A DNA stretch of 64,000 bases, taken from contig CAWDOY010000001.1 of the NCBI GenBank assembly GCA_963803975.1, positions 96,001 to 160,000 on the forward strand, read 5' to 3'. Origin of the DNA: an uncultured delta proteobacterium (lineage in GTDB: Bacteria; Desulfobacterota; WTBG01; CAIYCZ01). Made by a program: the position numbers and the translations under genes. Below, piece after piece: positions 37,284-54,563 of this stretch. The first letter of the stretch is position 1. Every line of letters starts with the position of its first letter. The notes below the pieces were generated by a model that saw only the letters and a program-made list of their open reading frames with translations, searched no databases and had not been told where the DNA came from.

Positions 37284-39360
37284 ATGCAATACGAGCTGGC
37301 AAAAAACATTAAATACAACAAAATGTCGTCTATAGACATTATTAATAAAGACAATGGCAATGGAACAAAGATGTGCGGAACAATGCCTGAAGGAGTGGTT
37401 GAATCATTATACGAAAATGCTCCCATAGGAATTTTTGTCATTAATCAAAAAAAAGAAATAGTAAACTTTAACAAAGAAGCGGTAAAAATATTTGGCTATC
37501 AACCTGAAGAGATTATCGGGAAACATCTGGTCACACTTATTCCGGACCGCTATCGCAATTTCCACTTCAAAGTTTTTGGTGCTGTGATGGGCAGCCCGGA
37601 GAGCAGTTCCAAGACCTATGAGTTCATAGGGTCTGAAAAAAAACGGTGAAGAATTTTCTGCTGAATTCAGCTTTTGTCTCCCGCAGGACCAACATGAACC
37701 GGTTATGATAATCAGCGCCCGGGATATCAGTTCACGCAAAGGGCTTGAAATCGAGATGAAGGAACGGGCTGATGTCCTCCAGGAATATTTAAAGCTGCAT
37801 AATCAGTGGCTTGTTGAAACCGAACAAAAATACACTGTTCTGTTCGAGGCATCAAAAACCGGGCTTTTTTATGTGCAGGAAGACGGAACCGTCTTTGATC
37901 TCAACACGGTAGCAGAGGAAATGCTCTGCCTGGACAAGAGCGCGGTCATCAATAAGCCGCTTATTCAGATCATGCCGGAGCATGAGTGGGAAAAGAAAGA
38001 AGAGCTTATAAAAAAGATTTTTAAAGATGTGCTGCAGTTCAATGCAGATAAGGTAATGGAAGGTTTTATTGTCAACAGCCAGGGCCGGGAGATTCCCAGC
38101 GAATTTTGTTTCAGAAAAATAGAGAAAGGGGCAGAGCGGCAGATCGTGTGCATGGTGCGGGATATATCGATTATGAAACAGATCGAAGATCAGCTCATTC
38201 AATCCCAGAAATTTGAAGGGCTCGGGGTGCTCATAGGGGGCATGGTGCACAACTTCAAGAATATAATGACCAGCATTATGGGATATGTTTCTCTTATGAG
38301 AACCATGGTGACACAGGATGAGAAACTCTGCAGATATTTAAATATTGTTGAGACCTCCTGTACCCGGGCTTCTGATCTGTCCAAAGAAGTGTTAGCAATC
38401 GGCAAAAAGCAGGAAAGCGTCAAAAAAATTATTAATATCAACAGCGTGATAGAGAGAAGCACGGTACTGTTTGAAGACTGTACCGATAAACGGTTTGTCG
38501 TGGATAAGGAGCTTGACCCTGCCCTGGGCCGTGCCGAGTGTAATGAAAGCCAGGTGGAGCAGGTAGTGCTCAATCTTCTGCTCAATGCACGGGATGCGAT
38601 GCCCGATGGCGGAGAAATTTTTGTCCGGACGCAGAACATCTATCTGAACCATGAAGCGTGTAAACATTACCACAATGTCACCGGTGGAAATTTTATCGAA
38701 ATTTTAGTAAAAGATTGCGGCAGCGGCATGTCGCAGGAAATACAGAAAAGGATTTTTGAACCGTTTTTTACCACTAAGGAAGAAGGACGGGGTACCGGGC
38801 TGGGGCTCTCGACCGTAGAGCGGATTGTGAAAAATCATCGAGGTTTTGTAGAAGTATTCAGCAGGGAGGGGCAGGGAACAACGTTTAAAATATATGTACC
38901 CGTCTATGAGGCCGCTGCAACTGATGCCAGGGACAACCGGCTGCATCCGGTTATGAAAAAAGGCTCGGAAACCATTCTGGCCGTTGATGACGAAAACAAG
39001 ATTATCCGCTTGATCTCTGAATCCATGGGAGCACTGGGCTACAACATTATATCCGCATCAGACGGGCAGGAAGCGGTCAAGCTGTTTGCGCAAAACAAGT
39101 CAGACATTGATCTGGTGATACTTGATCTCATGATGCCGTCCATGAACGGCTACGAAGCATTTAAGGAAATTAAAGCCATAGACCCAGCAACCAAGATTAT
39201 CCTGTGCACCGGATATGTGGCTGATGAGAATGTCCAGGAGATGCTGAATAATGGCGTCAAAGGGCTCCTCAAGAAGCCGTACCGGATAGAAGACCTCTCC
39301 CGTGCAGTCCGGCTGGTGCTGGACGAGCACGCTGCCGCCACGCCCTATTACCAGCAATAG
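37284..39360 (+). CDS. Hybrid PAS-PAS histidine kinase/receiver (frameshift at ~37630)
   Basis: Two PAS domains, GGMVHNFKN H-box, NLLLNARDAM, DCGSGM, FFTTK, GTGLGL, receiver ILDLMMP...KPY. Confidence 0.92.
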
Positions 39361-42740: not shown

Positions 42741-43151
42741 CACGCCATTACCGCAGCTGGCCTTTCTTCACTCCTCTTTTTCTCTCCAATATATGTTTCC
42801 CCTGCGCAGCGTTGTCTGAGGAATGATTTTTGCGCAAACACCCCAGGCAGCTTTTAATATCTGATTGACTCTCATATATAAATAGCTTACAAAAGATTCA
42901 TACGCCGGCACCGTTCATTAACAAGGCGCAGCATTACAACTTTTCTTCTGTTTCCCTAACCCGGACAAGCCGGAACCAAAGTTAACCGCAAAGACTAAAA
43001 AAGAAACAAAGAAGATTGAATTCGGAACTCACAAAGGTAAAAATAAAAATTTCCTGATTTCTTGAGTTCCAGATTTTTAATTGAAACAGATACTATGCGG
43101 CAGTTAATTCATGGGCATTGAAAAAAACAGAATAAACAGGAGGGCGTAACA

Positions 43152-44498
43152 ATGAAAGAACGATATGATGTGGTAGTGGTCGGCGCCGGTCCGTCAGGGC
43201 TTCTGGCAGCAAAGGCAGTGGCAGAGAACGGCTTTGATGTGGCAGTGGTTGAGCGCAAGGAAAAGATAGAAGTTATCGGCAGAACCTGCGGCCAGACGCT
43301 GTTGCCCCCCAATGATTATTTTTTCGGCGACCTGTTTCACTATAATGCGCGGGATAAAAGATTCTGCTTTCCCAAAAGCGGCCTCAGCTTTCCCTACAGC
43401 GGCCCGATTAAAAATCTTTATGACTGGTATATGTATTCCCCGGGGATGAAGCGGATGCACTTCGGCTACCCGGAAGGATATACTCCGCCCATACCGGGGA
43501 TGCTCAAGGCGCCCATCGCCCTCACCTATGACAAGGAAGTGCTGACCGCGGACCTGCTGAAGGAAGCACGCAGCGCACGCGCAGAGATATTTGAGAATTG
43601 TGAGTTCACCGATATCACCTGGGCCGGCCCCGAGACCATCGTAATTGCCGGGGGCAAACAGTTTCGCTGCACCTATGTGATTGCCGCCGACGGCACCAAC
43701 TCGCGGGTAGTGCAGAAGCTCGGGTTCAACAATGAGCGGCGGCACATCACCAATCTTTTCGTCAAATCGTTTTTCGTCAGCGGGTTTAAGTCGCCGGTTG
43801 CCGGAGAGCCCATTGTTACGGGTGTCAACATTTTTCAGGGCAAGCCGGTATATCTGTTCGCGGTGCCGCGGCCGGAAGGCGGGGACTGGAACCTGCTCTT
43901 CCTGACGCTTGAGCAGGGGATTGATATTGGCGCTGCGGCAGAACAGATCATGAAAGATTCTCCCTTTGCCCAGTACTGCAAGGGCGCGAAAATCGAGCGT
44001 GAACTGGCCGCCATGGAAGTGATTCAGTCGCCCATTGTGAAGCCGTTCAAGAACAACGTGGTCATTGTCGGCGACGCCGGCTCCTGCCAGGAGCTTGAAT
44101 GCCTGGGCGCGATGATCACCGGGTGGAAGGGCGGCCTTGCCGTGGCCGCTGCCCTGAAAGAGTTTCAGCTTGGCATTGCTCCCCGGGCTATTGCCGACTA
44201 CTGTGACTGGTGGCTCAATACCTACATCAAGCAGTATGACTACCAGGACTACCTGCAGGTGTTCGGCATTGCCTACATGTTCCCGAAGCCTGAGATTATA
44301 GATTATATATTCAGTCTGTTGAACCAGACCTTCCCGCCGACCTTTAACCCGTACACCGCGGTTAAGCATCTCGGCCTTGCCATGCAGATGGCCTTCCCGA
44401 AAATAATGGCTGAGCGGCCGGACATACTGCAGGAGCTGGTGCCGAACATGCTGGCATTTCCGTCCGATGTGCTGGCTAAGACGTTGAAGGACAAATAG
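43152..44498 (+). CDS. NAD(P)/FAD-dependent oxidoreductase, geranylgeranyl-reductase/FixC-like
   Basis: YDVVVVGAGPSG, IAADGTNS, IVGDAG. Confidence 0.88.
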   Translation: MKERYDVVVVGAGPSGLLAAKAVAENGFDVAVVERKEKIEVIGRTCGQTLLPPNDYFFGDLFHYNARDKRFCFPKSGLSFPYSGPIKNLYDWYMYSPGMKRMHFGYPEGYTPPIPGMLKAPIALTYDKEVLTADLLKEARSARAEIFENCEFTDITWAGPETIVIAGGKQFRCTYVIAADGTNSRVVQKLGFNNERRHITNLFVKSFFVSGFKSPVAGEPIVTGVNIFQGKPVYLFAVPRPEGGDWNLLFLTLEQGIDIGAAAEQIMKDSPFAQYCKGAKIERELAAMEVIQSPIVKPFKNNVVIVGDAGSCQELECLGAMITGWKGGLAVAAALKEFQLGIAPRAIADYCDWWLNTYIKQYDYQDYLQVFGIAYMFPKPEIIDYIFSLLNQTFPPTFNPYTAVKHLGLAMQMAFPKIMAERPDILQELVPNMLAFPSDVLAKTLKDK

Positions 44499-44718
44499 CA
44501 GTTTATTGGGGACGCAGATTTTCGCTGATACCGAGCAGATTTATAGAATAGGCCACAGAAGTTTCACAGTTAAGAGGCACAGAATTTTCAGGAAAATATT
44601 GATTCTGTGCTTTTCTGTGTTTTCAGTGGCTAACCTGAAAAGGGCAGAGGTTATCACTGGCTTCTGCCCTTACTTTTTTCTTGAGCCTAACTATCGGATA
44701 TGGTATCACTAATTAGCA

Positions 44719-46050
44719 GTGAGCACACTCACGAAAAGGAAGGATATTCAAGGGCGTATGGTCTGGCCTGAGGTTGGAATCTATGTAGGCGAAGGCGCAT
44801 CACATTCATGGACCTGGTTTGCTGACATCTTTGACCGGAGAGGCATCTACAGCGTCAGATTCTTTGATGAAGCTGCAATAGCAGATGGGGCTTTGGACGC
44901 TATAGACGTGCTTTTTATTTCCGGCGGTGACACGTTTGCCATTGCCGAGGGACTCGGCAGCACGGGGGCTGCACAGCTTGAGGCATTCATTCTCCAGGGC
45001 GGGGTTTACATCGGCTCATGCGCAGGTGCGTATCTGCCGCTCAAGTCATCGCTCTATCCGCTCAATCAGTTCAACCTGGTGACCTCGCGGATAACCAACC
45101 TGACAAAAAACCTTCCTGCGCCTAAACAGATGGCAGAAAAATTCTGCACTGAGTACGGCTGCCGGTATGTATTTCATCCGGTGCGTGAAGAAGTGAGGGT
45201 GAAAATAGCTGGCGGCTTTTCCTGTGCCGGGAAGGAAATGCGCGTGCCGCTCTATGGCGGGCCGGCCATGACCGCATCAGATGATATTGAAGTACTGGCA
45301 TACTATACCGGATTCACGGATAAGACAGAGTTTCTGGTGGACCGGGAAGTAGCTGAACAAACCCTGATCAGGTAACGTCGCCATTGCCCGGAAACGCCTG
45401 GGGCAGGGGGTCATTTATTTATTAGGACCGCATTTTGAGCATCCCCATTATCCGGCAGCCAACAGCATAATTTTTGAAGCCATGCTCGATGGTTATGCGG
45501 AGCCGCGGCTGCAGCCGGAGCAGTGCTGACATTTGCCTGCGATGAACCAGGAATTGCTAACAAGAATTTGATGCGCGCGTTCAAGAGTGAAATAAGCAAC
45601 GGCCGCATTGTCGCCCTGGCTCTGGAGCGAAAGCCGCTCCAGTGGCTTATTGGCAAAAAGGTTTATGATCCTGAAAAAATACGGGTATTTTTGGAAGCGG
45701 TGTGGTCACGGATTTCCGTGATTGACCGGGTGGAATGTATGGCTGAGGAAGAAGGGTATTACCTGCTGCACACCGCTCAAAGCGTGACCACCATGCTGAA
45801 GACATTGAAAAATGAATCCGACGCCGGACATGCGGTGACGGTTGCTGCAGAAGAACTGTTTGCTAAGCTTAAAGCATTAGCAGCGGCATTTTTAACGCTC
45901 TATTTCAGATTGAAAGAGTTCGGGAGTTCAGGAGTTGAGGGGTTCAGGAGTGCTCAGAAGCATCAAAACTGCGCAGCAGAACTCCACACTCCTCAACTCT
46001 CACAACTCATTAACCAGAGGAGGCTACATGAAACACTATCTCTACTTTGA
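44719..46050 (+). CDS. BPL_N / class I glutamine-amidotransferase-like protein (2 frameshifts)
   Basis: IYVGEGAS, ISGGD, GGVYIGSCAGAY nucleophile elbow, YGGP. In the shifted frame after 45370, GPHFEHP (His-x-Glu). Confidence 0.75.
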
Positions 46051-46835
46051 AGCAACAGCGCTGCTCTACATTTTAACGATTCGTCACCTTTATATTTTTC
46101 TTTGCCGGGGTATTTGTGACCATTTCCCTCTGGCGGCGCGGCAAGGCAAAGAGCCTGTATCACAGCGTCAGCACGCCGGCCATCATCAAAGCGTTTATTG
46201 TCAATGTGGTACTGCAGCTGCAGATCATTAAATTCAGCTTCATCCGCTGGGTTATGCACTTCTGCATATTTATCGGGTTCATGGGCCTGCTGGCCCTGAC
46301 AGCATGGGAAGCGTTTCTTGCCGATATCCTGCCGGCAAGTTCCGCCCTGGTGAGAGTATTTTTTAACAACGGCGGCAGGCTGATCCTGGATGTATGGGGT
46401 GAGGTGTTTGGCACGATGCTCCTCGCGGGGCTCATCATTGCGCTCCTGCGGCGCTATGTTTTCAGGGTCGCCCAGCTTGATACCATCCTGAAAGACACGG
46501 TTTCCATAGTTCTGCTGCTCATAATCAGCGTGAGCGGGTTCATCGCCGAGGCATTCAGGCTCATGGCGATACCGGGATCACCTGATCTTATCTACTCGTT
46601 TGTTGGTCTTCTGTTTGCAAAAGTTTTTGCAGCAGCAGGCATCCCGATGCTTAATTATAAACTGTTTGTCTGGCTGCACGGCCTGGCAGCCATGCTGTTC
46701 ATTGCGCTCATTCCGTTCAGCAAAATGTGGCACGCGTTTGCGAGCCCCATTGAAATTATTCTTGATGCATCCGAGAAGCAGGGGAAACATGAAGAAGAAG
46801 TTGCTGCCGCCCACTATTCAGTGTCCCGCAGCTGA
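46028..46835 (+). CDS. HdrE/NarI-like membrane b-type cytochrome (frameshift near 46080)
   Basis: GAGGAGG RBS; about 5 TM helices; RWVMHFCIFIGF, SGFIAEAFR, WLHG...PFSKMWHAF heme-ligand histidines. Confidence 0.85.
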
Positions 46836-46918
46836 TGAAAAAATATTTGTACCACTGAGAGCACAGAGAATTGTGTGCTCTGTGGTTTGTTATTGGCCAG
46901 AGATAAAGGAGTCTACCC

Positions 46919-48251
46919 ATGGAGAACGAGGTAAAAATAGATCAGGAAACACCAGTACGGGAAGTTAAAGTTGAAAACCTGAGTATGCGCCAGCTGCTGG
47001 AGCTTGATGCCTGCACCCGCTGCGGTGAGTGCTCAAACTGGTGCCCGGCCTATGAGCAGGACAAGCGGGAGCCCATCAACCCCCGCGGCAGGGCCTATGA
47101 TTTCAGGAGGCTCATCAGACGGCAGTACGGTTTATTCAGGCCGGACGGCTTTCTGGGAAAGTTATTCGGTAAGAAGCCCATCAGCTGAAGCAGAGATAAA
47201 GAGGATGGCCGCTGACCTGTATGAGTGCAGCACCTGCCGGCAATGCCATTTTGTGTGCCCGGCGAGCATTGATACGGTTGAGCTCTGGGAAGCCATCAGG
47301 CGCTCGTTTGTGGAGGCAGGATACGGGCCGCTGGATTCTCAGAAAGATCTGGTCACCAGCGTAAAATCTTATGATAACCCGTGGCGACAGCCGCGCAGCT
47401 CCCGCGCCCGCTGGACGAGGGTGGCAAAAAAGAAAAAGAGAATTAAGGAAGAGCCGAAAGATCTTGGCAAAAACAAGGCAGAGGTGATCTACTTTGTGGG
47501 CTGCACCGGCTCCTATGATGTGAATGTTGAAGAAGTGGCAATAAATACGGTAAACATTTTAGAGCACTCACAGACTGATTTCGGCATCCTCGGCAACAAG
47601 GAGAAGTGCTGCGGCAGCGTGCTGCTGCGCATGGGCGACCGGGAATCATTTGAAACCATAGCCCAGGAGAACATAAAACAGTTTAATGAACTGGGCATCA
47701 AGACGCTGGTGACCTCCTGTTCCGGCTGTTTCAAAACCATTAAGGAAGACTATGCAAAAGTGGGCGGGATGAATTTTGATATCAAGCACACTGCAGAGTA
47801 CCTGGTTGAGCTGATTAAATCAGGCAAGCTCGAGCTCAAGCATGAAGTGAAGATGAAGGTCACCTACCACGACCCGTGTCATCTGGGCCGGCACAGCGGT
47901 GTGTATGATGCTCCCCGGGAACTGCTGCGGAGCATCCCGGGCATTGAGTTTGTGGAGATGGAGCGCTCCCGCGAATTTTCCCGCTGCTGCGGGGCCGGCG
48001 GCGGGCTCAAGGCAGGGTATCCCGATATCCAGAACAAGATTTCCCAGCAGCGCATCAGTGACGCGATAGCAACCGGAGCAACCGAGCTGGTCTCTGCCTG
48101 CCCGTTCTGCTATCAGGGGCTGCAGGTGGGAATCCAGGCCATGAATGCGCCGATCACCATGCGCGATATCACCGAGCTGGTCTACAGGTCTCTTACCGGA
48201 AAAACCGAGCAAGAGAGACCCGCAGCCGAGGGAGAGGCTGAGGCAGAATAG
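46919..48251 (+). CDS. HdrD-like heterodisulfide reductase Fe-S subunit (2x[4Fe-4S] plus 2 CCG domains; frameshift at ~47185)
   Basis: ELDACTRCGECSNWCP, CSTCRQCHFVCP, IDTVELWE, KCCG...TSCSGC, YHDPCHLGR...RCCGAGGG...SACPFC. Confidence 0.9.
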
Positions 48252-48356
48252 TGATTCATAGCGGGGACTAGAGGAAACCGGAATACTCTTTTTTCGTGAG
48301 TTCTTGATTGATATGTGGACAGAGAAGACCCCTATAGTAACATCATTTTGAATGGT

Positions 48357-49334
48357 ATGTTTAGCAGCAAAAGACAATCTTCCCCACCGTATCGTCACTG
48401 CTTTTTATTAATACTGCTTTGCCTGGTATTACTGTGCACTACCGCATGCTCTCCGTCAAAAAGCGAGGGCATGAAAATCCGCCTTGGCTATCTCCAGAGT
48501 GATCTGCACCATCTGCCTGCTTTTGTTGCCATAGAAAAAGGATATTTTCAGCAGGAAGGATTAGCTGTTGAAGTGATCGGCGCGTTCAGGGCCGGCCCCG
48601 AACTTATGAGCGCTTTTTCCGCACAAGCACTTGATGTCGGGTATGTCGGCCTGGCGCCGGCTATCACGGCAAAGGCCAATAGCACTGCACATATTAAATG
48701 CATTGCCCTGGTAAACACGGAAGGCTCTGCCATCGTAGCAGGGAAAGAGTCGTCCGGTAAGAGCGTGGCTGATTTAAAGGGGAAGGTGGTAACTATTCCC
48801 GGACATGCAACGATGCAGGATTTTCTGCTCAGAAGAGCGCTCAAACAACAGGGAATCGCTGTTAATGAAATTAAATTGCTGGTCCTCAAACCCCCCGAGA
48901 TGATTCCTGCCCTCAGCAGAAAAGATATTGATGCCTTTATTGCATGGGAGCCGTATCCGTCAAAAGCGGTCACTGAGAACGCAGGCAGGATCTTAATGAC
49001 GTCGCATCAGATCTGGGCGCAGCATCCCTGCTGTGTTATTGTTGCGGATGAAGAGTTTTGCGGAAAGCACCCGGAGATGGTGCAAAAGCTGAAAAGCGTT
49101 CACCGACGAGCCGTTGAATTTATAAATGCCAACAGGCCGGAAGCCATAGCTATTGGTGTTAACTATACCGGCATGGATGGTAAAACAGTAGCCGCGGCTC
49201 TGGGCAACATCACCTATGGTGGCGTGCTTGAGCGGCAGTATGTGGCTGAATATGTTGATTTTTTAAGGGAGTTACGTTATATAAGGCCAGACATAGCAAA
49301 GGATTTTTTAATGAGTATCTTGCCTGAACAGTAG
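48357..49334 (+). CDS. ABC transporter substrate-binding lipoprotein, SsuA/NitT/TauA/NMT1 type
   Basis: TAC lipobox, IRLGYLQSDLHH, GYVGLAPA, IAWEPY, HPCCV. Confidence 0.9.
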   Translation: MFSSKRQSSPPYRHCFLLILLCLVLLCTTACSPSKSEGMKIRLGYLQSDLHHLPAFVAIEKGYFQQEGLAVEVIGAFRAGPELMSAFSAQALDVGYVGLAPAITAKANSTAHIKCIALVNTEGSAIVAGKESSGKSVADLKGKVVTIPGHATMQDFLLRRALKQQGIAVNEIKLLVLKPPEMIPALSRKDIDAFIAWEPYPSKAVTENAGRILMTSHQIWAQHPCCVIVADEEFCGKHPEMVQKLKSVHRRAVEFINANRPEAIAIGVNYTGMDGKTVAAALGNITYGGVLERQYVAEYVDFLRELRYIRPDIAKDFLMSILPEQ

Positions 49335-49396
49335 TTTTCCCTCTACGCTGCTCATTAAAAACAAGAGTTACGGGGAATAATACAGCAGCTGCGCGC

Positions 49397-50165
49397 ATGA
49401 ATTATCTTAAAAAGAACAGTAAACTCCTTTTTCCCCTTCTGCTGCTTGTTTTATGGCAGATATTTTCCTCATCCGGGTTATTTCCCTCCGCAGATACTTC
49501 CCTCACCGCTCCAGATTGTGACCGGTATCAAAGAGCTTGTGTTTGCCGGGCTTCCGCCGGGCAACAGCCTGTTGCTCCATTGTTTTGAAAGTCTTCTGCG
49601 TGTTTCAGCGGGCTTTGCTCTAGCGCTTATTATGGGAGTGCCGCTGGGCATTATGGTCGGAAGGTTTAAGCTGCTGAGAAACATGCTGACCCCGGTTATA
49701 GAAACCATTCGCCCGATTCCACCCCTTGCCTGGATCCCGCTCGCCATTCTGTGGTTTGGCATCGGCTTTAAATCAGCGCTGTTTATTATCTTTTTGGGAT
49801 GCTTTTTCCCGATACTGCTGAGCACCATTTCAGGTGTGCTCTCAGTAGACACGATACTCATTGATGCAGCAAAGACCCTGGGAGCAACAGAGAAGAAAAT
49901 ATTCCTTCAGATATTGATCCCTGCTGCCACTCCTTCAATTTTTACCGGCATCCGCATCGGGGTTGGTATTGGCTGGATGACCCTGGTTGCCGCGGAATTT
50001 ACCGGCGTGAAGAGCGGCTATGGCCTGGGATATATGATTATGGTGGCGCGTGATATTCAGCGGCCTGATCTGGTTATCGGCGGTATGGCGGCCATCGGAT
50101 TGATGGGCTATCTGCTTGATGCAGGGCTGCGCATGCTGGAAGCGCGGACGCTGAAATGGAGATAA
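49397..50165 (+). CDS. ABC transporter permease, SsuC/TauC type (frameshift near the 5' end)
   Basis: RPIPPLAWIPLAILWFG, DAAKTLGA (EAA loop), WMTLVAAE. Confidence 0.92.
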
Positions 50166-50252
50166 AGAATCAGCTGACAGCGTTCAGCAATCAGCTGTCA
50201 GGGACATGTTTGCTGAAAGCTGACGGCTGATAGCTACAGTGCTTAAAAAACT

Positions 50253-51017
50253 ATGACCTTAGAGCTGAAAAATCTCTGTAAAACATATACTGACGAATCG
50301 GGCGAAAATACGGTTGCAGCGCTCAGTAATATTACCCTTACCGTGAGGGCAGGGGAGTTCCTCTCTGTTATCGGGCCCAGCGGATGCGGCAAGACCACCA
50401 TGCTGCGGATTATCGCAGGCCTGGAGCAGCCTACTGCGGGTGAAGTATTCATTAATGGTGAGCAGCTGGCAGAGCCCTGGAGCAGGGTCGGCTTTGTTTT
50501 CCAGGAGTATGCGCTGTTTCCGTGGCGCACCGTAAGCGAGAATGTGGAGTTCGGTCTTGAGCTTAAAAATATACCGAAGCAGGAGCGACGGCGCATGGCG
50601 CTTGAATATATTAATCAATTTGGCATGGGGGGCTTCGAAAATAAGTATCCCAAGGAGCTTTCCGGAGGCATGAAACAGCGCGTAGCCATAGCGCGCACGC
50701 TCATTACCAATCCCTCCATTATCCTCATGGATGAGCCGTTCGGGTCCCTTGATTCACAGACCCGCAATGCGCTTCAGGAATTCCTGCGGGACGTGTGGCA
50801 AACATCGCAAAAGACCATTATCTTTATTACGCACAATATCGACGAGGCGGTATTTTTAAGCCACCGGGTAATCGGATTCTCGCGGCGGCCCGGGACTATC
50901 AAGTTTTCCCTCGACATTGATATACCTGCGCCACGCGACCGGACCGGCTCAGAGTTCAACCAATGCCGGAAACAGATTCTTGGTTTTCTGCAGCAGGAGA
51001 GCATGGCAGATAAATAA
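50253..51017 (+). CDS. ABC transporter ATPase, SsuB/TauB type
   Basis: GPSGCGKTT, FQEYALFPW, LSGGMKQR, MDEPF, ITHNIDEA. Confidence 0.95.
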   Translation: MTLELKNLCKTYTDESGENTVAALSNITLTVRAGEFLSVIGPSGCGKTTMLRIIAGLEQPTAGEVFINGEQLAEPWSRVGFVFQEYALFPWRTVSENVEFGLELKNIPKQERRRMALEYINQFGMGGFENKYPKELSGGMKQRVAIARTLITNPSIILMDEPFGSLDSQTRNALQEFLRDVWQTSQKTIIFITHNIDEAVFLSHRVIGFSRRPGTIKFSLDIDIPAPRDRTGSEFNQCRKQILGFLQQESMADK

Positions 51018-51078
51018 ACAGACTGCAGCGATTAGCGGTCAGTTTTCAGCTTTGAATAATTTATGGAAATAATATTTC

Positions 51079-51756
51079 ATGGAAGAATTATTTTCTAAAG
51101 CTCTTGCAAAAATTGAGGAGAAATTCACGCTCACCCCTGTTGAGCTTCCGCATGATTTGAAAGAAACCCGCTTTCCCCTGGGGCTTCTGGAAATGCAGTG
51201 CTTCAACTGGAAGGCCGGGGGAATTCGAAAAATATATGCCATGCGGCTGAAGATCAAGGTGCCCTCACTTGATATCCTGGGAATGGCAATCTATCCGGAG
51301 CCTGATGTTGATGTTCCCATATTTTGTTTTGATCTCTCCTGTGCCAGGAAAAAAATCGTGACGTATATAAATGCTATCCCGCTGTTGCAGGATGAAGCAT
51401 TTACAAAAAAGTATCTTGACCCTTTCAAGCCGGCCCATGATGCATACCGCAGTTTCCCGCCGCACAAGAAGCCTGAATGGATGCTTCGCTATACATCGCC
51501 CTATACTATTTACTCAATGCCTGAGCTTGAACGGGCACGGGACATCAAGGCTTGTGTGCTTGATTATTTAGCAGTGTACCTGGATATCATTGCCGGTGCG
51601 CCCAGGATAGACAATCCCCAATACCGGATGCGCATTGAGCAGGAACAAAAAAACTACATAAACGAATTGCTGACAAAAGATAATTCGCAGAAAATGCTGG
51701 CAAAACTGCTGGGAAAGGAAAAGACCGGCAGGATCTTTCACGAAGTGCTGGTATAA
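51079..51756 (+). CDS. Ferredoxin-dependent bilin reductase (PcyA/PebA/RCCR)-fold protein
   Basis: IRKIY...LDILGMAIYPEPDVDVPIFCFDL, PEW...SPY, Q..Y......D....ML...LG......IFHEVL. By eye these match PcyA motifs (LDILHCVMFPEP...PLFGCDI). Confidence 0.75.
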   Translation: MEELFSKALAKIEEKFTLTPVELPHDLKETRFPLGLLEMQCFNWKAGGIRKIYAMRLKIKVPSLDILGMAIYPEPDVDVPIFCFDLSCARKKIVTYINAIPLLQDEAFTKKYLDPFKPAHDAYRSFPPHKKPEWMLRYTSPYTIYSMPELERARDIKACVLDYLAVYLDIIAGAPRIDNPQYRMRIEQEQKNYINELLTKDNSQKMLAKLLGKEKTGRIFHEVLV

Positions 51757-51763
51757 TGTGCAT

Positions 51764-52832
51764 ATGGACATAAGAACAATACAGGTTGAACTGCAGAGCC
51801 TTGGACTCAGGGTTCCGGACAGCTGCCCCGGCAGAAAAGGCGGGGCAGGGCCTGCTGAAGGCCAGGTGATCATCCTGGCCGGCCGCGCCATCAGCGTCCC
51901 CACGCAGAGCGCCTATGTCGCCGCATCACCCTATGCATTACAGCAGCGGGGCAGCTCTTTCATGCTGTTTAAAGAGACCCGTGAAATAGGGGAGGTCATA
52001 CTGCCCGCACGGCCGCGCTATTATGACCTGCAAACAGCTAACGGGGTTACCTTTGACACGGATTGCCCTGACCCATGGCATAGAGTGCCTGGCATCAACC
52101 GTGTACCAGGACTGTGTCTACTGGAAGACTGCGGACGGCTGCACTTTCTGCGGCATCGGGCTTTCTCTTGCCGGCAACAGCACGGTTCTTGAAAAAGAGC
52201 CGGAAGATATCGGCCTGGTTGCAGAAAACGCCGCGCGTCTTGACGGCGTCACTCACGTGACCCTTACTACCGGCATGCGGGTAAGTGAAAAGACGGTCAT
52301 TCATCATCTCTCCGGCTGTGTAAGGGCGATTAAACAAAGAACCAGTCTGCCGGTGCATGTTCAGATATGCCCTCCCGGGGACCTTAAAGACCTTGAAGCC
52401 CTCAAGCAGGCAGGCGTTGATACCATCGGTATCCATATTGAGACGTTTGATGCTGCGGCGCTCAAGCGGGTGGCTCCGGCAAAAGCTGCGTGTGGACTTG
52501 AGCCGTATATAAAAACATGGAAACATGCTGTTACGGTGTTTGAGAAAAACCAGGTCAGCAGTTTTCTTATAGCAGGGCTTGGCGAAGAGCCTTCAAGCAT
52601 TCTCGCGGGCGCAGAGCTGCTCTGTAAGCTGGGAGTGTTTCCGTATCTTCTGCCGCTGCGTCCCATCCCGGGAACAGCGCTGGCAGAAACAAGACCACCA
52701 GCTCCTGAGACAATGCAATACCTGTATGAGCAGGTAGGGGCTATGCTCCAGAACTACGGGCTGTCTTCAAAGGCATGCACGGCAGGTTGTGTGAGGTGCG
52801 GGGCATGTTCGGCGCTTGCGCTGTTTGAGTAG
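51764..52832 (+). CDS. Radical SAM protein, MSMEG_0568/NitD family (frameshift at ~52050)
   Basis: ELQSLGLR...GRKGGAGP, LASTVYQDCVYWKTADGCTFCGI, HVTLTTG, C-terminal AGCVRCGACSAL. Confidence 0.88.
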
Positions 52833-53010
52833 CTAAGTCCTCGATTCATAAATTCGGTGACGAATTTACTCACTCAGGACTTAGTGCTGAGTCAGCATTG
52901 TAAAGCTTTTATTTGGATCACATACGTCACTGTATTTGCGAATCGAAGCACTAAGGGGTTGGGGTTTGGGGGTTCGGGATTAGTGGTTCACGGGACTAAG
53001 CGGCTTTTAT

Positions 53011-53457
53011 ATGATGCTTGAAATAGAATGCAGGCCGGTTCAGAATAACGACGAACTGCGCGAGAGCTTTGCTCTCCGCAAAAAAGTTTTTGTTGAAGAG
53101 CAGCAGCTGTTCAGACGGACTGACCGTGACCGGCATGATAAGCAGGCCATTCATATTGTTGCCCTGTGCCATAATAATGTTGTCGGCACGGTGCGGGTGC
53201 ATCACCAGAAAGCCGGCATCTGGTTTGGCAGCAGGCTGGCAGTGTTACAACAGTTCCGCGGCAGGGCAGGGAAATTGCTCATACAGAAAGCGGTGCACGT
53301 GGTAAAAGAGAAAGGGGCACAGCAGTTTCGTGCGCATATTCTGCTGAGAAATGTTCCTTTATTTAAGAGGCTCGGGTGGGTGACGGCAGGGCATGTTTTT
53401 ACCTACCGCGGCCAGCCTCACCAGATGATGGAAGCTAATCTTGACCACAAACAGTGA
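53011..53457 (+). CDS. GNAT N-acetyltransferase, MSMEG_0567 N-terminal/NitE family
   Basis: LRKKVFVEEQQLF..TDRD.HD, VGTVR, WFGSRLAV, FRAHI...NVPLFKRLGW, G.PH..M.A.L. Confidence 0.88.
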   Translation: MMLEIECRPVQNNDELRESFALRKKVFVEEQQLFRRTDRDRHDKQAIHIVALCHNNVVGTVRVHHQKAGIWFGSRLAVLQQFRGRAGKLLIQKAVHVVKEKGAQQFRAHILLRNVPLFKRLGWVTAGHVFTYRGQPHQMMEANLDHKQ

Positions 53458-53564
53458 ACGGTCGTCAATGAATAGTCAGGTTACAATCTTGAATATGTAG
53501 CTGCTGAGGGTTATTGTAACTATTCACCATTCACTATTCACTAATACGGCAGGCGAGGACTCTT

Positions 53565-54563
53565 GTGATGCTAAGAGACATAATTAATGAAATCAGAACC
53601 TATCCCGGCTTAACCCGAAAGCGGAACATATACCGGATCACCAATATGCTCGCCCCGGTTGCAGATTATGGCGCAACGATTGCTGATTTTGGGGAGGATG
53701 CGGCAGCCATTTACCATAAGGGTGAGTTTCTCCTGCTTGCTGCCGACGGCATCTGGAAAGGCCTCATCGAGGCAAATCCCTATGCAGCAGGTAAAGCTTC
53801 GGTCATGGCCAGCGTGAATGATATTTATGCCATGGGCGGCCGTCCGCTGGCGATGGTGAATGTCATTGGTATTTCAGAGCCGCGATACTATGAAGAAATA
53901 ATGCGGGGCATTCAAAAGGGGTGCGAAAAATTCCGCGTTCCCATGGTCGGCGGGCATCTCCATCCGGATTCGAGCGAGGTCTCTCTGTCGGTGTCGATAC
54001 TGGGTGTGGCAAAAAAGCTTCTCCTGAGCACGAATGCCCGTGACGGCCAGGATATTGTCTTTGCCGTTGACCTTGAGGGCCGGGGCTATCAGTGCAAGCC
54101 GGTCATAAGCTGGGATACCAATTCAGGGAAAAATTCACAGCAGGTGCTGGAGCGGCTTGAAGTGCTTCCCTGCATTGCAGAAGCAGAGCTGTGTCAGACG
54201 GCAAAGGATGTGAGCAACGGCGGGCTATTGGGCACTATTGCTCTGATGCTTGAAGTATCGGGGAAGGGGGCGCTTATTACTATGGACAGCATTCCAAAAC
54301 CTGATTTATTTTCCATGACTGACTGGCTGAAAGCATTCTTAAGCTATGGTTTTGTGCTCAGTGTTGATAAGGAAAAAACCGGGTCTGTCATAGCGCGCTT
54401 TCGGGAGAAAAATATAGCTGCCAATGTTATTGGCGAGATTACGCTGGATAAGCGCATGGTTCTTTCATATCAGGGTGAACAGGATCTGCTGTTTGACTTT
54501 GAGAGAGAGGCAATTACCGGCATCACCACAGGCCTTGATGTCCCGGGATTCAGCTTTGGATAA
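53565..54563 (+). CDS. AIR-synthase-related (PurM-like) protein, sll0787/NitF/methanogenesis-marker-2-like
   Basis: GEDAAAI, LLAADG, SVNDIYAMGGRP, VGGH, AKDVSNGGLLGT. Confidence 0.88.
   Translation: MMLRDIINEIRTYPGLTRKRNIYRITNMLAPVADYGATIADFGEDAAAIYHKGEFLLLAADGIWKGLIEANPYAAGKASVMASVNDIYAMGGRPLAMVNVIGISEPRYYEEIMRGIQKGCEKFRVPMVGGHLHPDSSEVSLSVSILGVAKKLLLSTNARDGQDIVFAVDLEGRGYQCKPVISWDTNSGKNSQQVLERLEVLPCIAEAELCQTAKDVSNGGLLGTIALMLEVSGKGALITMDSIPKPDLFSMTDWLKAFLSYGFVLSVDKEKTGSVIARFREKNIAANVIGEITLDKRMVLSYQGEQDLLFDFEREAITGITTGLDVPGFSFG

Follow-up and report, generated by a model that had tools for sequence, protein, structure and literature searches.

Positions 44719-54563 of the window, a 64,000-nucleotide stretch of contig CAWDOY010000001.1 from an uncultured delta proteobacterium, carry ten genes on the plus strand. 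They encode, in turn, a GATase-fold protein (GATase, glutamine amidotransferase; BPL_N family), HdrE- and HdrD-like proteins, the binding protein, permease, and ATPase of an importer, a ferredoxin-dependent bilin reductase (FDBR) fold protein, an enzyme of the radical S-adenosylmethionine (SAM) type, a GNAT protein, and a PurM-fold enzyme of the AIR synthase type (AIRS) (Table 1). A first-pass annotation made from the sequence alone had listed the same ten co-oriented genes in this order, and Pfam and NCBIfam profile searches confirmed them all, with matches to PF09825, PF02665, PF02754, TIGR01728, PF05996, TIGR04043, TIGR04045, and AIRS. That annotation had the gaps between the genes as short; the 178-base gap before the GNAT gene is not, and it holds a dispersed repeat. 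Four of the ten genes, for the GATase, the AIRS, the HdrD-like protein, and the radical SAM enzyme, are retained jointly, as a unit, in 13 families of anaerobic Desulfobacterota-type bacteria, and with the HdrE-like and GNAT genes they form the six-gene core of the module described here.

Table 1. Genes and signals of the cluster, in window coordinates
Feature	Position	Strand	Class	Remarks
Terminator-like hairpin, 14 pairs and T-run	44640..44671	+		consensus match only; between the geranylgeranyl-reductase (GGR)-family gene and the module
GATase-fold protein (BPL_N, PF09825)	44719..46050	+	core	Cys-His-Glu triad; C-terminal helical domain; three open reading frame pieces through assembly error
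HdrE/DsrM/NarI-like membrane subunit (PF02665)	46028..46835	+	core	two invariant His
HdrD-like protein	46919..48251	+	core	Fer4 and two CCG domains (PF02754)
SsuA/NMT1-type binding protein	48315..49334	+	accessory	TIGR01728, 197 versus cut-off 163.5; HPCC motif
ABC permease	49397..50165	+	accessory	frameshift error near 49475
ABC ATPase	50253..51017	+	accessory	family profile matches
FDBR fold protein	51079..51756	+	passenger	PF05996, 103 bits; confined to part of the family
MSMEG_0568/NitD-type radical SAM enzyme (TIGR04043)	51758..52832	+	core	CX8CX2C plus C-terminal GCxxCxxCS
NitE-type GNAT (TIGR04045)	53011..53457	+	core	136 versus cut-off 68 bits
PurM-fold ATP-dependent enzyme (AIRS)	53565..54563	+	core	intermediate between NitF and methanogenesis marker 2

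Frameshifts in the assembly split five of the genes, namely those for the GATase (twice), HdrE, HdrD, the permease, and the radical SAM enzyme. There are extra bases at 45369, 45520, 46078, 47184, 49475, and 52057, and a base has been lost behind 44750. DNA runs X1 and X2, which come from different studies, yielded short-read contigs that each lack the six extra bases and contain the additional one behind 44750. Since the contigs of two independent runs carry the intact frame, the splits are assembly errors; the true start of the GATase gene is probably near 44758 and its true end before 46050. Genome-wide, 33 of 133 well-matched orthologs (out of 258 queries from genome G003) are broken by frameshifts or stops, and this rate together with the short-read contigs rules out true pseudogenization. 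Selenocysteine read-through is also ruled out, the breaks being single-base frameshifts. For the broken genes of the source genome (G000, 98% complete), locus L068, in which the same ten genes are intact at 64-95% identity per gene, served as a stand-in. Metagenomes from freshwater and sediment in 14 studies contain near-identical DNA. Contigs of two RNA-library runs, both from a single study, cover parts of the cluster; such contigs cannot show transcription or co-transcription, DNA may be present, and bins without coverage carry no weight.

Joint retention of four core genes across 13 families

A sample of 401 genomes of the same phylum, evenly drawn and at least 85% complete, was searched four times. 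The AIRS alignment (E≤1e-40) found matches in 42 genomes, and the GATase alignment (E≤1e-63) found the identical 42, plus a weak N-terminal match in G235. The HdrD-like clade (E≤1e-105) is present in 40, with best matches 53-94% identical, and the radical SAM enzyme (TIGR04043, E≤1e-60) in 37, all within the 42; none of the four proteins was found in the other 359 genomes at these thresholds. Split radical SAM genes in G273 and G378 and contig-edge pieces in G022 and G028 bring the radical SAM enzyme to 41/42, and a split hdrD in G273 brings the HdrD clade to 41/42. The two exceptions, G258 without radical SAM and G182 without hdrD, both lie at contig ends. The module is thus found in about a tenth of the sampled phylum, and its occurrence is patchy inside some of the 13 families (5/12 in f23 and 1/11 in f17).

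The presence of HdrE and GNAT was read from loci, not from genome-wide profiles. The radical SAM enzyme is present in all 20 relatives of the same taxonomic order, and the run GATase-hdrE-hdrD-SBP-permease-ATPase-radical SAM-GNAT-AIRS (SBP, binding protein) is complete at 8 of the 20 loci; three others have no binding protein at its usual place, three run only as far as GNAT, and six are split or cut off by contig ends. The proposed adjacency of the radical SAM-GNAT-AIRS trio to hdrDE and the importer held in many relatives. Among the best 80 of 529 GATase matches in metagenomes, the HdrD clade is present at all 21 loci that extend at least 9.5 kb downstream. The GATase and AIRS genes lie within 20 kb of each other in just 22/42 genomes and are 2.8 Mb apart in the single-contig genome G074. 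The unit is wider than one locus, as the genes persist even where they are unlinked.

Core proteins, accessory genes, and related systems

The triad motifs GxCAG and GPHxEHP are found in 71/71 aligned GATase members. The predicted structure (predicted local distance difference test score, pLDDT, 90) is closest to Pdx2 (Z 19.6), HisH (18.2), and PurQ (18.0), with gamma-glutamyl peptidase also among the matches (Z 14.3), and the residues after about 250 form a helical domain in the model. The modeled fold and the triad read from the motifs are those of class I glutamine amidotransferases. An ESM Atlas search with the protein returned BPL_N clusters and nothing further. No GATase was found in three Asgard genomes whose AIRS stands alone, nor in one Nit1C cyanobacterium. 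A module-type GATase, 41% identical to the G067 protein, occurs on a 7 kb contig labeled as from a Halobacteriota archaeon (P0343), which may be mis-binned.

The membrane subunit of HdrDE is of the NarI type with four heme-binding His residues. In the HdrE-like alignment (31 members), two His residues are invariant, a third is present in most and replaced in f50 and f20, and no fourth is seen. In 30/30 members, the HdrD-like protein carries two motifs of the ferredoxin type along with a pair of complete five-Cys CCG motifs. In a quick tree it forms its own clade on a long stem (SH-like approximate likelihood ratio test, SH-aLRT, 100), apart from 11 paralogs of the source genome, and its best curated family is TfrB (232 bits, below the cut-off of 385). 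We know of no thiol substrate for bacterial HdrD-like proteins in hosts without DsrA.

The last three genes had been equated with NitD, NitE, and NitF of the Nit1C cluster. The radical SAM enzyme (intact L068 protein, 372 versus 304 bits) and the GNAT pass the respective cut-offs; the AIRS falls below that of NitF/sll0787 (TIGR04049, 297 versus 321) and also below that of marker 2 (TIGR03267, 330 versus 365). In a quick tree of 103 rows, the AIRS sequences of the module form no single clade. They share a group (support 94) with the NitF clade, marker-2-like sequences falling outside this group (support 99), and they lie outside the NitF clade itself with moderate support, the deep order being weak. 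The nearest solved relatives of the AIRS are PurL, ThiL, and SelD; in family f39 only, a threonine synthase gene directly follows it (L109:150-1484, L114:12309-13649). The radical SAM C-terminal GCxxCxxCS is found in 52/56 sequences, two Nit1C copies included, and the four misses are two truncated sequences and two distant variants. The radical SAM model (pLDDT 93.6) is closest in fold to lipoyl synthases (Z 19.7 and 18.5), followed by MqnE (17.9) and BioB (17.8), and in sequence it is nearest ThiH and BioB among solved structures. The GNAT is fused to the radical SAM enzyme in most other families. Its score against the model of the N-acyl amino acid synthase FeeM, 24.5 bits, is below the cut-off of 27 and serves as a lead only.

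Related radical SAM genes also occur in other contexts. G011 has a second copy amid cysteine desulfurase-like, ThiF, TtcA, NMT1-type ABC, and CysK genes (L043:2472-13102), and one copy in G039 lies beside a CoA-disulfide-reductase-like gene. Distant variants (L063:6503-11569, L064, L062) stand beside PALP, JAB, and ThiF genes, a sulfur-carrier-type context, with a sulfate symporter in L063. G067 holds two related radical SAM genes, a methyltransferase, a B12 radical SAM, DsrE, GNAT, and AIRS in one run (L100:100-6440).

The importer had been included in the cluster, and it does adjoin the trio and hdrDE in many relatives; its binding-protein clade, however, is found in only 31/42 module genomes, which makes it an accessory. 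The HPCC motif occurs in 24/25 members of this clade. The FDBR-fold gene, also taken as a component, is a passenger. It is found only in G000, G002, L068, L167, and L169, with a remnant of the deleted gene in G001, and is absent from G003, 17/17 sister-family loci, 25 further annotated loci, and 20/21 long metagenome loci; in the strain of run X20 it is deleted, the contig joining 51056 to 51680. This distribution and the deletions rule it out as a member. FDBR-fold proteins are described from non-photosynthetic bacteria (PMC10151467), and the source genome, an anaerobe, has three further weak FDBR-fold genes (G000:C39:93432, C40:2964, C40:62558).

The surroundings of hdrDE vary among the other families. 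Multiheme cytochrome c, cytochrome b561, and cytochrome c fused to HdrE are inserted in f23, f37, f75, and f90, and NrfC, NrfD, and a Psr/Phs-like molybdoenzyme in f50 and f17, while further families have cytochrome b6 and cytochrome c fused to HdrD. Across these variants, the HdrD-like subunit is the end that stays constant in several electron-transfer chains. In f23, f37, and f75, a flavodoxin-like FMN protein mostly precedes the fused radical SAM-GNAT. A DsrE protein that aligns with NitB at Ala-Cys lies directly before the radical SAM gene in 11/42 module genomes; this clade was not found in the other 31, the source genome included, and none of the 5 relatives scanned matches TIGR04044 at 1e-8. 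The importer occurs alone in 28 of the 42 genomes, DsrE alone in 8, both in 3, and neither in 3.

Nit1C is defined by seven genes (PMC1199592), and the function of its NitD/E/F trio has been called obscure (PMC7815647). In M. smegmatis the cluster confers peroxide resistance and a higher NADPH/NADP ratio (PMC6039565). The module shares with Nit1C/gpr (nitBCDEFGH; MSMEG_0565-0572; sll0783-0787) the radical SAM, GNAT, and AIRS genes in identical order, the radical SAM C-terminal motif, and, in 11/42 genomes, a NitB-related protein. It differs in the dedicated GATase and HdrDE clade, in an AIRS that scores below the NitF cut-off and probably belongs outside the NitF clade, and in its anaerobic hosts. 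That NitC, NitB, NitG, and the flavoprotein are unrecognizable in the cluster was borne out by model and tblastn searches, and no remainder of Nit1C was found elsewhere in the 98% complete source genome. There, the best NitC match (TIGR04048) reaches 51 versus a cut-off of 503 bits, the nitrilase-family match being 26% identical, and the best TIGR04046 match 23.5 versus 498; NitB (TIGR04044) has no match, three NitG queries and one NitH query gave no tblastn match, and DUF1348 was not found. NitC over the cut-off occurs in 0/42 module genomes, the best being G294 (434 versus 503), on another contig. The module is not Nit1C.

The module shares with the transmembrane complexes DsrMK(JOP), Hmc, and Tmc a cytochrome b-like and a CCG subunit and, in other families, NrfC/NrfD or multiheme cytochrome extensions. 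The HdrD-like protein is, however, far below the DsrK (103 versus 400 bits), TmcB, and HmcF cut-offs and is always coupled to four biosynthetic-type enzymes; DsrA was found in just 21/42 module genomes and in none of the source genome's order. In sHdr-LbpA systems with LipS1/LipS2-sLpl(AB)-LipT-LipX, genes for radical SAM sulfur insertion and for a GATase-like protein, which serve the thiol carrier of an Hdr-like enzyme, likewise accompany the gene of that enzyme. GATase-like LipX and radical SAM sulfur insertion are described for this system (PMC10332631), and the C-terminal Cys residues of LipS2, which thiolates a terminal carbon, are described as auxiliary-cluster ligands (PMC9585515). The module differs in having one radical SAM enzyme of another family (LipS2 model 43-49 bits versus a cut-off of 270; CX8CX2C, not Cx3Cx2C), a membrane HdrDE instead of the soluble sHdr, and added GNAT and AIRS; no lipoate ligase or GcvH-like/lipoyl-domain gene is among the neighbors in the annotated loci. 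PurL/PurQ also pairs a PurM-fold enzyme with a class I GATase with an intact triad, a predicted likeness at the fold level only, and the GATase and AIRS genes of the module are often apart.

Methanosarcina HdrDE with coenzyme M (CoM) and coenzyme B (CoB) appears to share, by motifs and domains, the NarI-like and double-CCG pair and an SsuABC-type importer. Further likenesses are the relation of the AIRS to marker 2 and the comABDE genes elsewhere in the class. The module differs in its bacterial host, the lack of ComF/MMP16, and a radical SAM enzyme, GNAT, and GATase not found in two methanogen controls. HdrB is described as reducing the heterodisulfide between two non-cubane clusters (PMC5861303), ssuABC as the CoM importer of methanogens (PMC10658910), and marker 2 as present in all methanogens surveyed (PMC4153887). 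In the source genome, comA-comB-comD-comE lies at G000:C37:14948-17174 (L246:8949-11175), flanked by queH and a radical SAM gene. ComA (312 versus 280 bits) and ComD (176 versus 148) pass the cut-offs; ComE, truncated by a frameshift, does not (161 versus 221), and the ComB family match was seen in the G003 ortholog. ComC sulfolactate dehydrogenase is not in this operon, the only place examined for it. The operon is conserved in f1, f2, and f4 (12/13 class loci, the contig of the 13th ending after comB). Among the 50 genomes of a second set, ComA of the archaeal type is found in f1 (2/2), f2 (8/9), and f4 (5/8), and in 0/8 of f3, which has no strong module match, and 0/23 others, two of these with the radical SAM enzyme. 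A divergent comA in G067 (L251:2942-5150), 32% identical to that of the source genome, stands beside a MmgE/PrpD gene without comB/D/E. HdrA/HdrC/HdrB-like genes lie behind a formate-dehydrogenase-like gene at G000:C34:46121-49561 (HdrB model 160 bits, below the cut-off).

Proposed function and alternatives

We tentatively propose, with a probability of about 0.45, that the function of the six-gene module is to synthesize and recycle a small thiol dedicated to carrying electrons, which the HdrDE-like pair would cycle against the quinone pool. The coupling of the genes is an observation, and we infer all of the chemistry. In favor of the proposal are the joint profile over 401 genomes and the retention of the genes where they are unlinked, the paired CCG motifs and separate clade of the HdrD-like protein, the lipoyl-synthase-like fold of the radical SAM enzyme, the sulfur-related surroundings of its copies in G011 and G039, the use of ssuABC as CoM importer by methanogens, the comABDE operon, the presence of DsrA in no more than half of the 42 genomes, and the peroxide and NADPH phenotype of Nit1C in M. 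smegmatis. Since the four enzymes are retained all-or-none with one HdrDE clade, the simplest account is that they make the substrate of HdrDE, and the CoM/CoB-Hdr and lipoylated LbpA-sHdr systems, being built that way, would be analogous. In this scheme, the GNAT would acylate an amine, and the radical SAM enzyme would put sulfur on an unactivated carbon by means of a putative auxiliary Fe-S cluster at its C terminus, much like lipoyl and biotin synthases. The PurM-fold enzyme may carry out an ATP-dependent phosphorylation, in the manner of ThiL, or an amide activation with ammonia from the GATase, in the manner of PurL/PurQ; alternatively, the GATase may be a hydrolase that releases the product. 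The HdrD-like subunit would interconvert thiol and disulfide at two non-cubane clusters and exchange electrons with the quinone pool via the HdrE-like subunit, and other families may add periplasmic cytochromes or an NrfCD/Psr-like unit to this chain. The SsuABC-type importer may serve to recover the carrier or a sulfonate partner; a NitB/DsrE-like protein, a putative sulfur carrier, tends to be present in lineages that lack the importer. In the source genome's class, the comABDE operon could supply a CoM-type partner.

Several observations weigh against this proposal. None of the four enzymes has a known product, substrate, or activity, and in Nit1C the same trio has been linked to cyanide use and nitrogen starvation (PMC7815647, PMC11049912). 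The 42 genomes are related and do not represent 42 independent events, for which reason no P value is given; some of the GATase-AIRS separations are contig breaks, and others are flanked by unrelated genes on both sides. The Z gaps among the radical SAM fold matches are small (19.7 versus 17.9). The GATase gene stands beside hdrD in 35/40 genomes and beside AIRS in 22/42, so a PurQ/PurL-type pairing fits poorly. A full pair of CCG motifs is also present in 5 of the 11 other paralogs of the source genome, and the CCG proteins GlpC, LdhH, and the 9ojn reductase match the HdrD-like protein too, so its disulfide chemistry is not proven. The comABDE operon is unlinked to the module and occurs in just 13/42 module genomes, and ComD was found in 0/27 ComA-negative module genomes and over the cut-off in 1/30 non-module genomes. 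In the source genome, ComF/MMP16 was not found (TIGR03287 gave ferredoxin-stretch matches only, best 31 bits), nor was L-ASST (PF01837, no match). Without either, the CoM route of the source genome leads, by known enzymes, no further than sulfoacetaldehyde (PMC12068725). The two methanogen controls have marker 2 and lack BPL_N, NF045502, and an over-cut-off GNAT.

The first alternative, which we consider rather unlikely, is maturation at the protein level. The target of the four enzymes would be a protein (HdrD, the GATase-fold protein, or the DsrE/NitB-like carrier), or they would assemble an uncommon ligand or metal cluster, and HdrDE would act on a protein-bound disulfide. HypE makes cyanide ligands, DsrK is thought to act on DsrC, and LipS1/LipS2 lipoylate LbpA for the sHdr complex. 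The NitB-like proteins with their conserved Ala-Cys, encoded immediately ahead of the radical SAM gene in 11/42 genomes, fit this alternative, as do the tightest linkage of the GATase, of all genes, to hdrE/hdrD, the arrangement NrfC-NrfD-Mo enzyme-cytochrome-HdrE-HdrD in f50, which resembles DsrO/P/M/K by family matches, and the sHdr-LbpA system with its GATase-like LipX and radical SAM sulfur insertion (PMC10332631). However, no carrier protein is common to all 42 genomes, a lipoate ligase or GcvH-like gene is missing among the neighbors in the annotated loci, and the sulfonate-type importer in 31/42 points to a small molecule.

A catabolic or assimilatory, anaerobic counterpart of Nit1C is also unlikely. 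Here, an imported nitrile, thiocyanate, amide, or sulfonate would be broken down; the Cys-His-Glu hydrolase would take the place of the nitrilase, and HdrDE that of the NitH flavoprotein as an electron source or sink. When L093-L095 are compared with L068, a C-N hydrolase and an oxidoreductase are indeed swapped one-for-one around the unchanged trio, the GATase fold matches include hydrolases such as gamma-glutamyl peptidase, and the binding protein has its nearest relatives among nitrate, taurine, and sulfonate binders. Contrarily, all-or-none retention in single copy, even after the cluster has broken up, is more like cofactor housekeeping; moreover, the importer clade is absent in 11/42, and the annotated loci show no conserved regulator next to the cluster.

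A methanogen-like heterodisulfide cycle without methane is improbable. In this case, the trio would make a CoB-like omega-mercaptoacyl-amino-acid phosphate by N-acylation, terminal sulfur insertion, and phosphorylation, comABDE or the importer would supply CoM, and HdrDE and the HdrABC-like complex at C34 would cycle the mixed disulfide. A CoB-like product would suit the three activities, but this reading is weakened by the two methanogen controls, which have marker 2 and lack the other enzymes. If it were true, the AIRS step would point to the role of marker 2 in the unsolved CoB pathway, and Nit1C would be an aerobic version making a related thiol. An accreted neighborhood of unrelated genes traveling together is hardly tenable and already largely refuted, as, despite passengers inside the cluster (the bilin-reductase fold, a MORN protein, and toxin-antitoxin pairs), the GATase and AIRS occur in identical sets of genomes though 20/42 hold them apart, presence within families is patchy, and the radical SAM enzyme and GNAT are fused.

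Returning to the thiol carrier, a trio without the nitrilase but with an obligatory redox partner argues for the making of a redox carrier and not for service in cyanide use only. The HdrD clade comes with candidate enzymes for making its thiol substrate, and the closeness of the AIRS to marker 2 links the module to the question of CoB, whose biosynthesis is described as unknown (PMC12068725). One gene set thus ties together three open problems, namely the function of NitD/E/F, the substrate of HdrD-like proteins, and marker 2/CoB. The module is a real and widespread variant, apparently undescribed, that would function in the way of a thiol-carrier/Hdr system; a search of open-licence PMC articles and bioRxiv, with subscription journals and supplements outside its scope, found no description of the combination.

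Flanking and variable features

Searches of the window stretch (E≤1) and of 7 related loci (gathering score) found no riboswitch or other noncoding RNA, and a promoter scan gave 11 versus 12.7, at chance level. Upstream of the module, a gene for a GGR-family flavoprotein lies at window 43152-44498. It was ruled out as a LipT-like member by the terminator-like hairpin, about 30 paralog matches in the genome (tblastn), and adjacency in close kin only.

In many families, a degenerate AOR-like gene (436-524 aa, matching AFOR_N only, with the Cys motif partly lost) lies directly upstream of the GATase gene (L125:1000-2307, L127:786-2105, L128:2761-4266, and nine more). It has no ortholog in the source genome (171 bits versus 625-713), where AOR-family genes are numerous (24 matches). 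Behind hdrD, 11 of the 21 long loci carry family c25, of about 210-245 aa with Cys motifs (L125:10555-11286, L103:5769-6392), which has no Pfam match and no ESM Atlas match above 0.77; two relatives of 31-32% identity occur in the source genome.

The repeat between the radical SAM and GNAT genes (window 52835-52960) has 19 blastn matches in the genome and an inverted repeat at its start, and a second dispersed intergenic repeat (window 42940-43090) has 47. A PAS kinase gene at window 37284-39360 seems to be split like the cluster genes.

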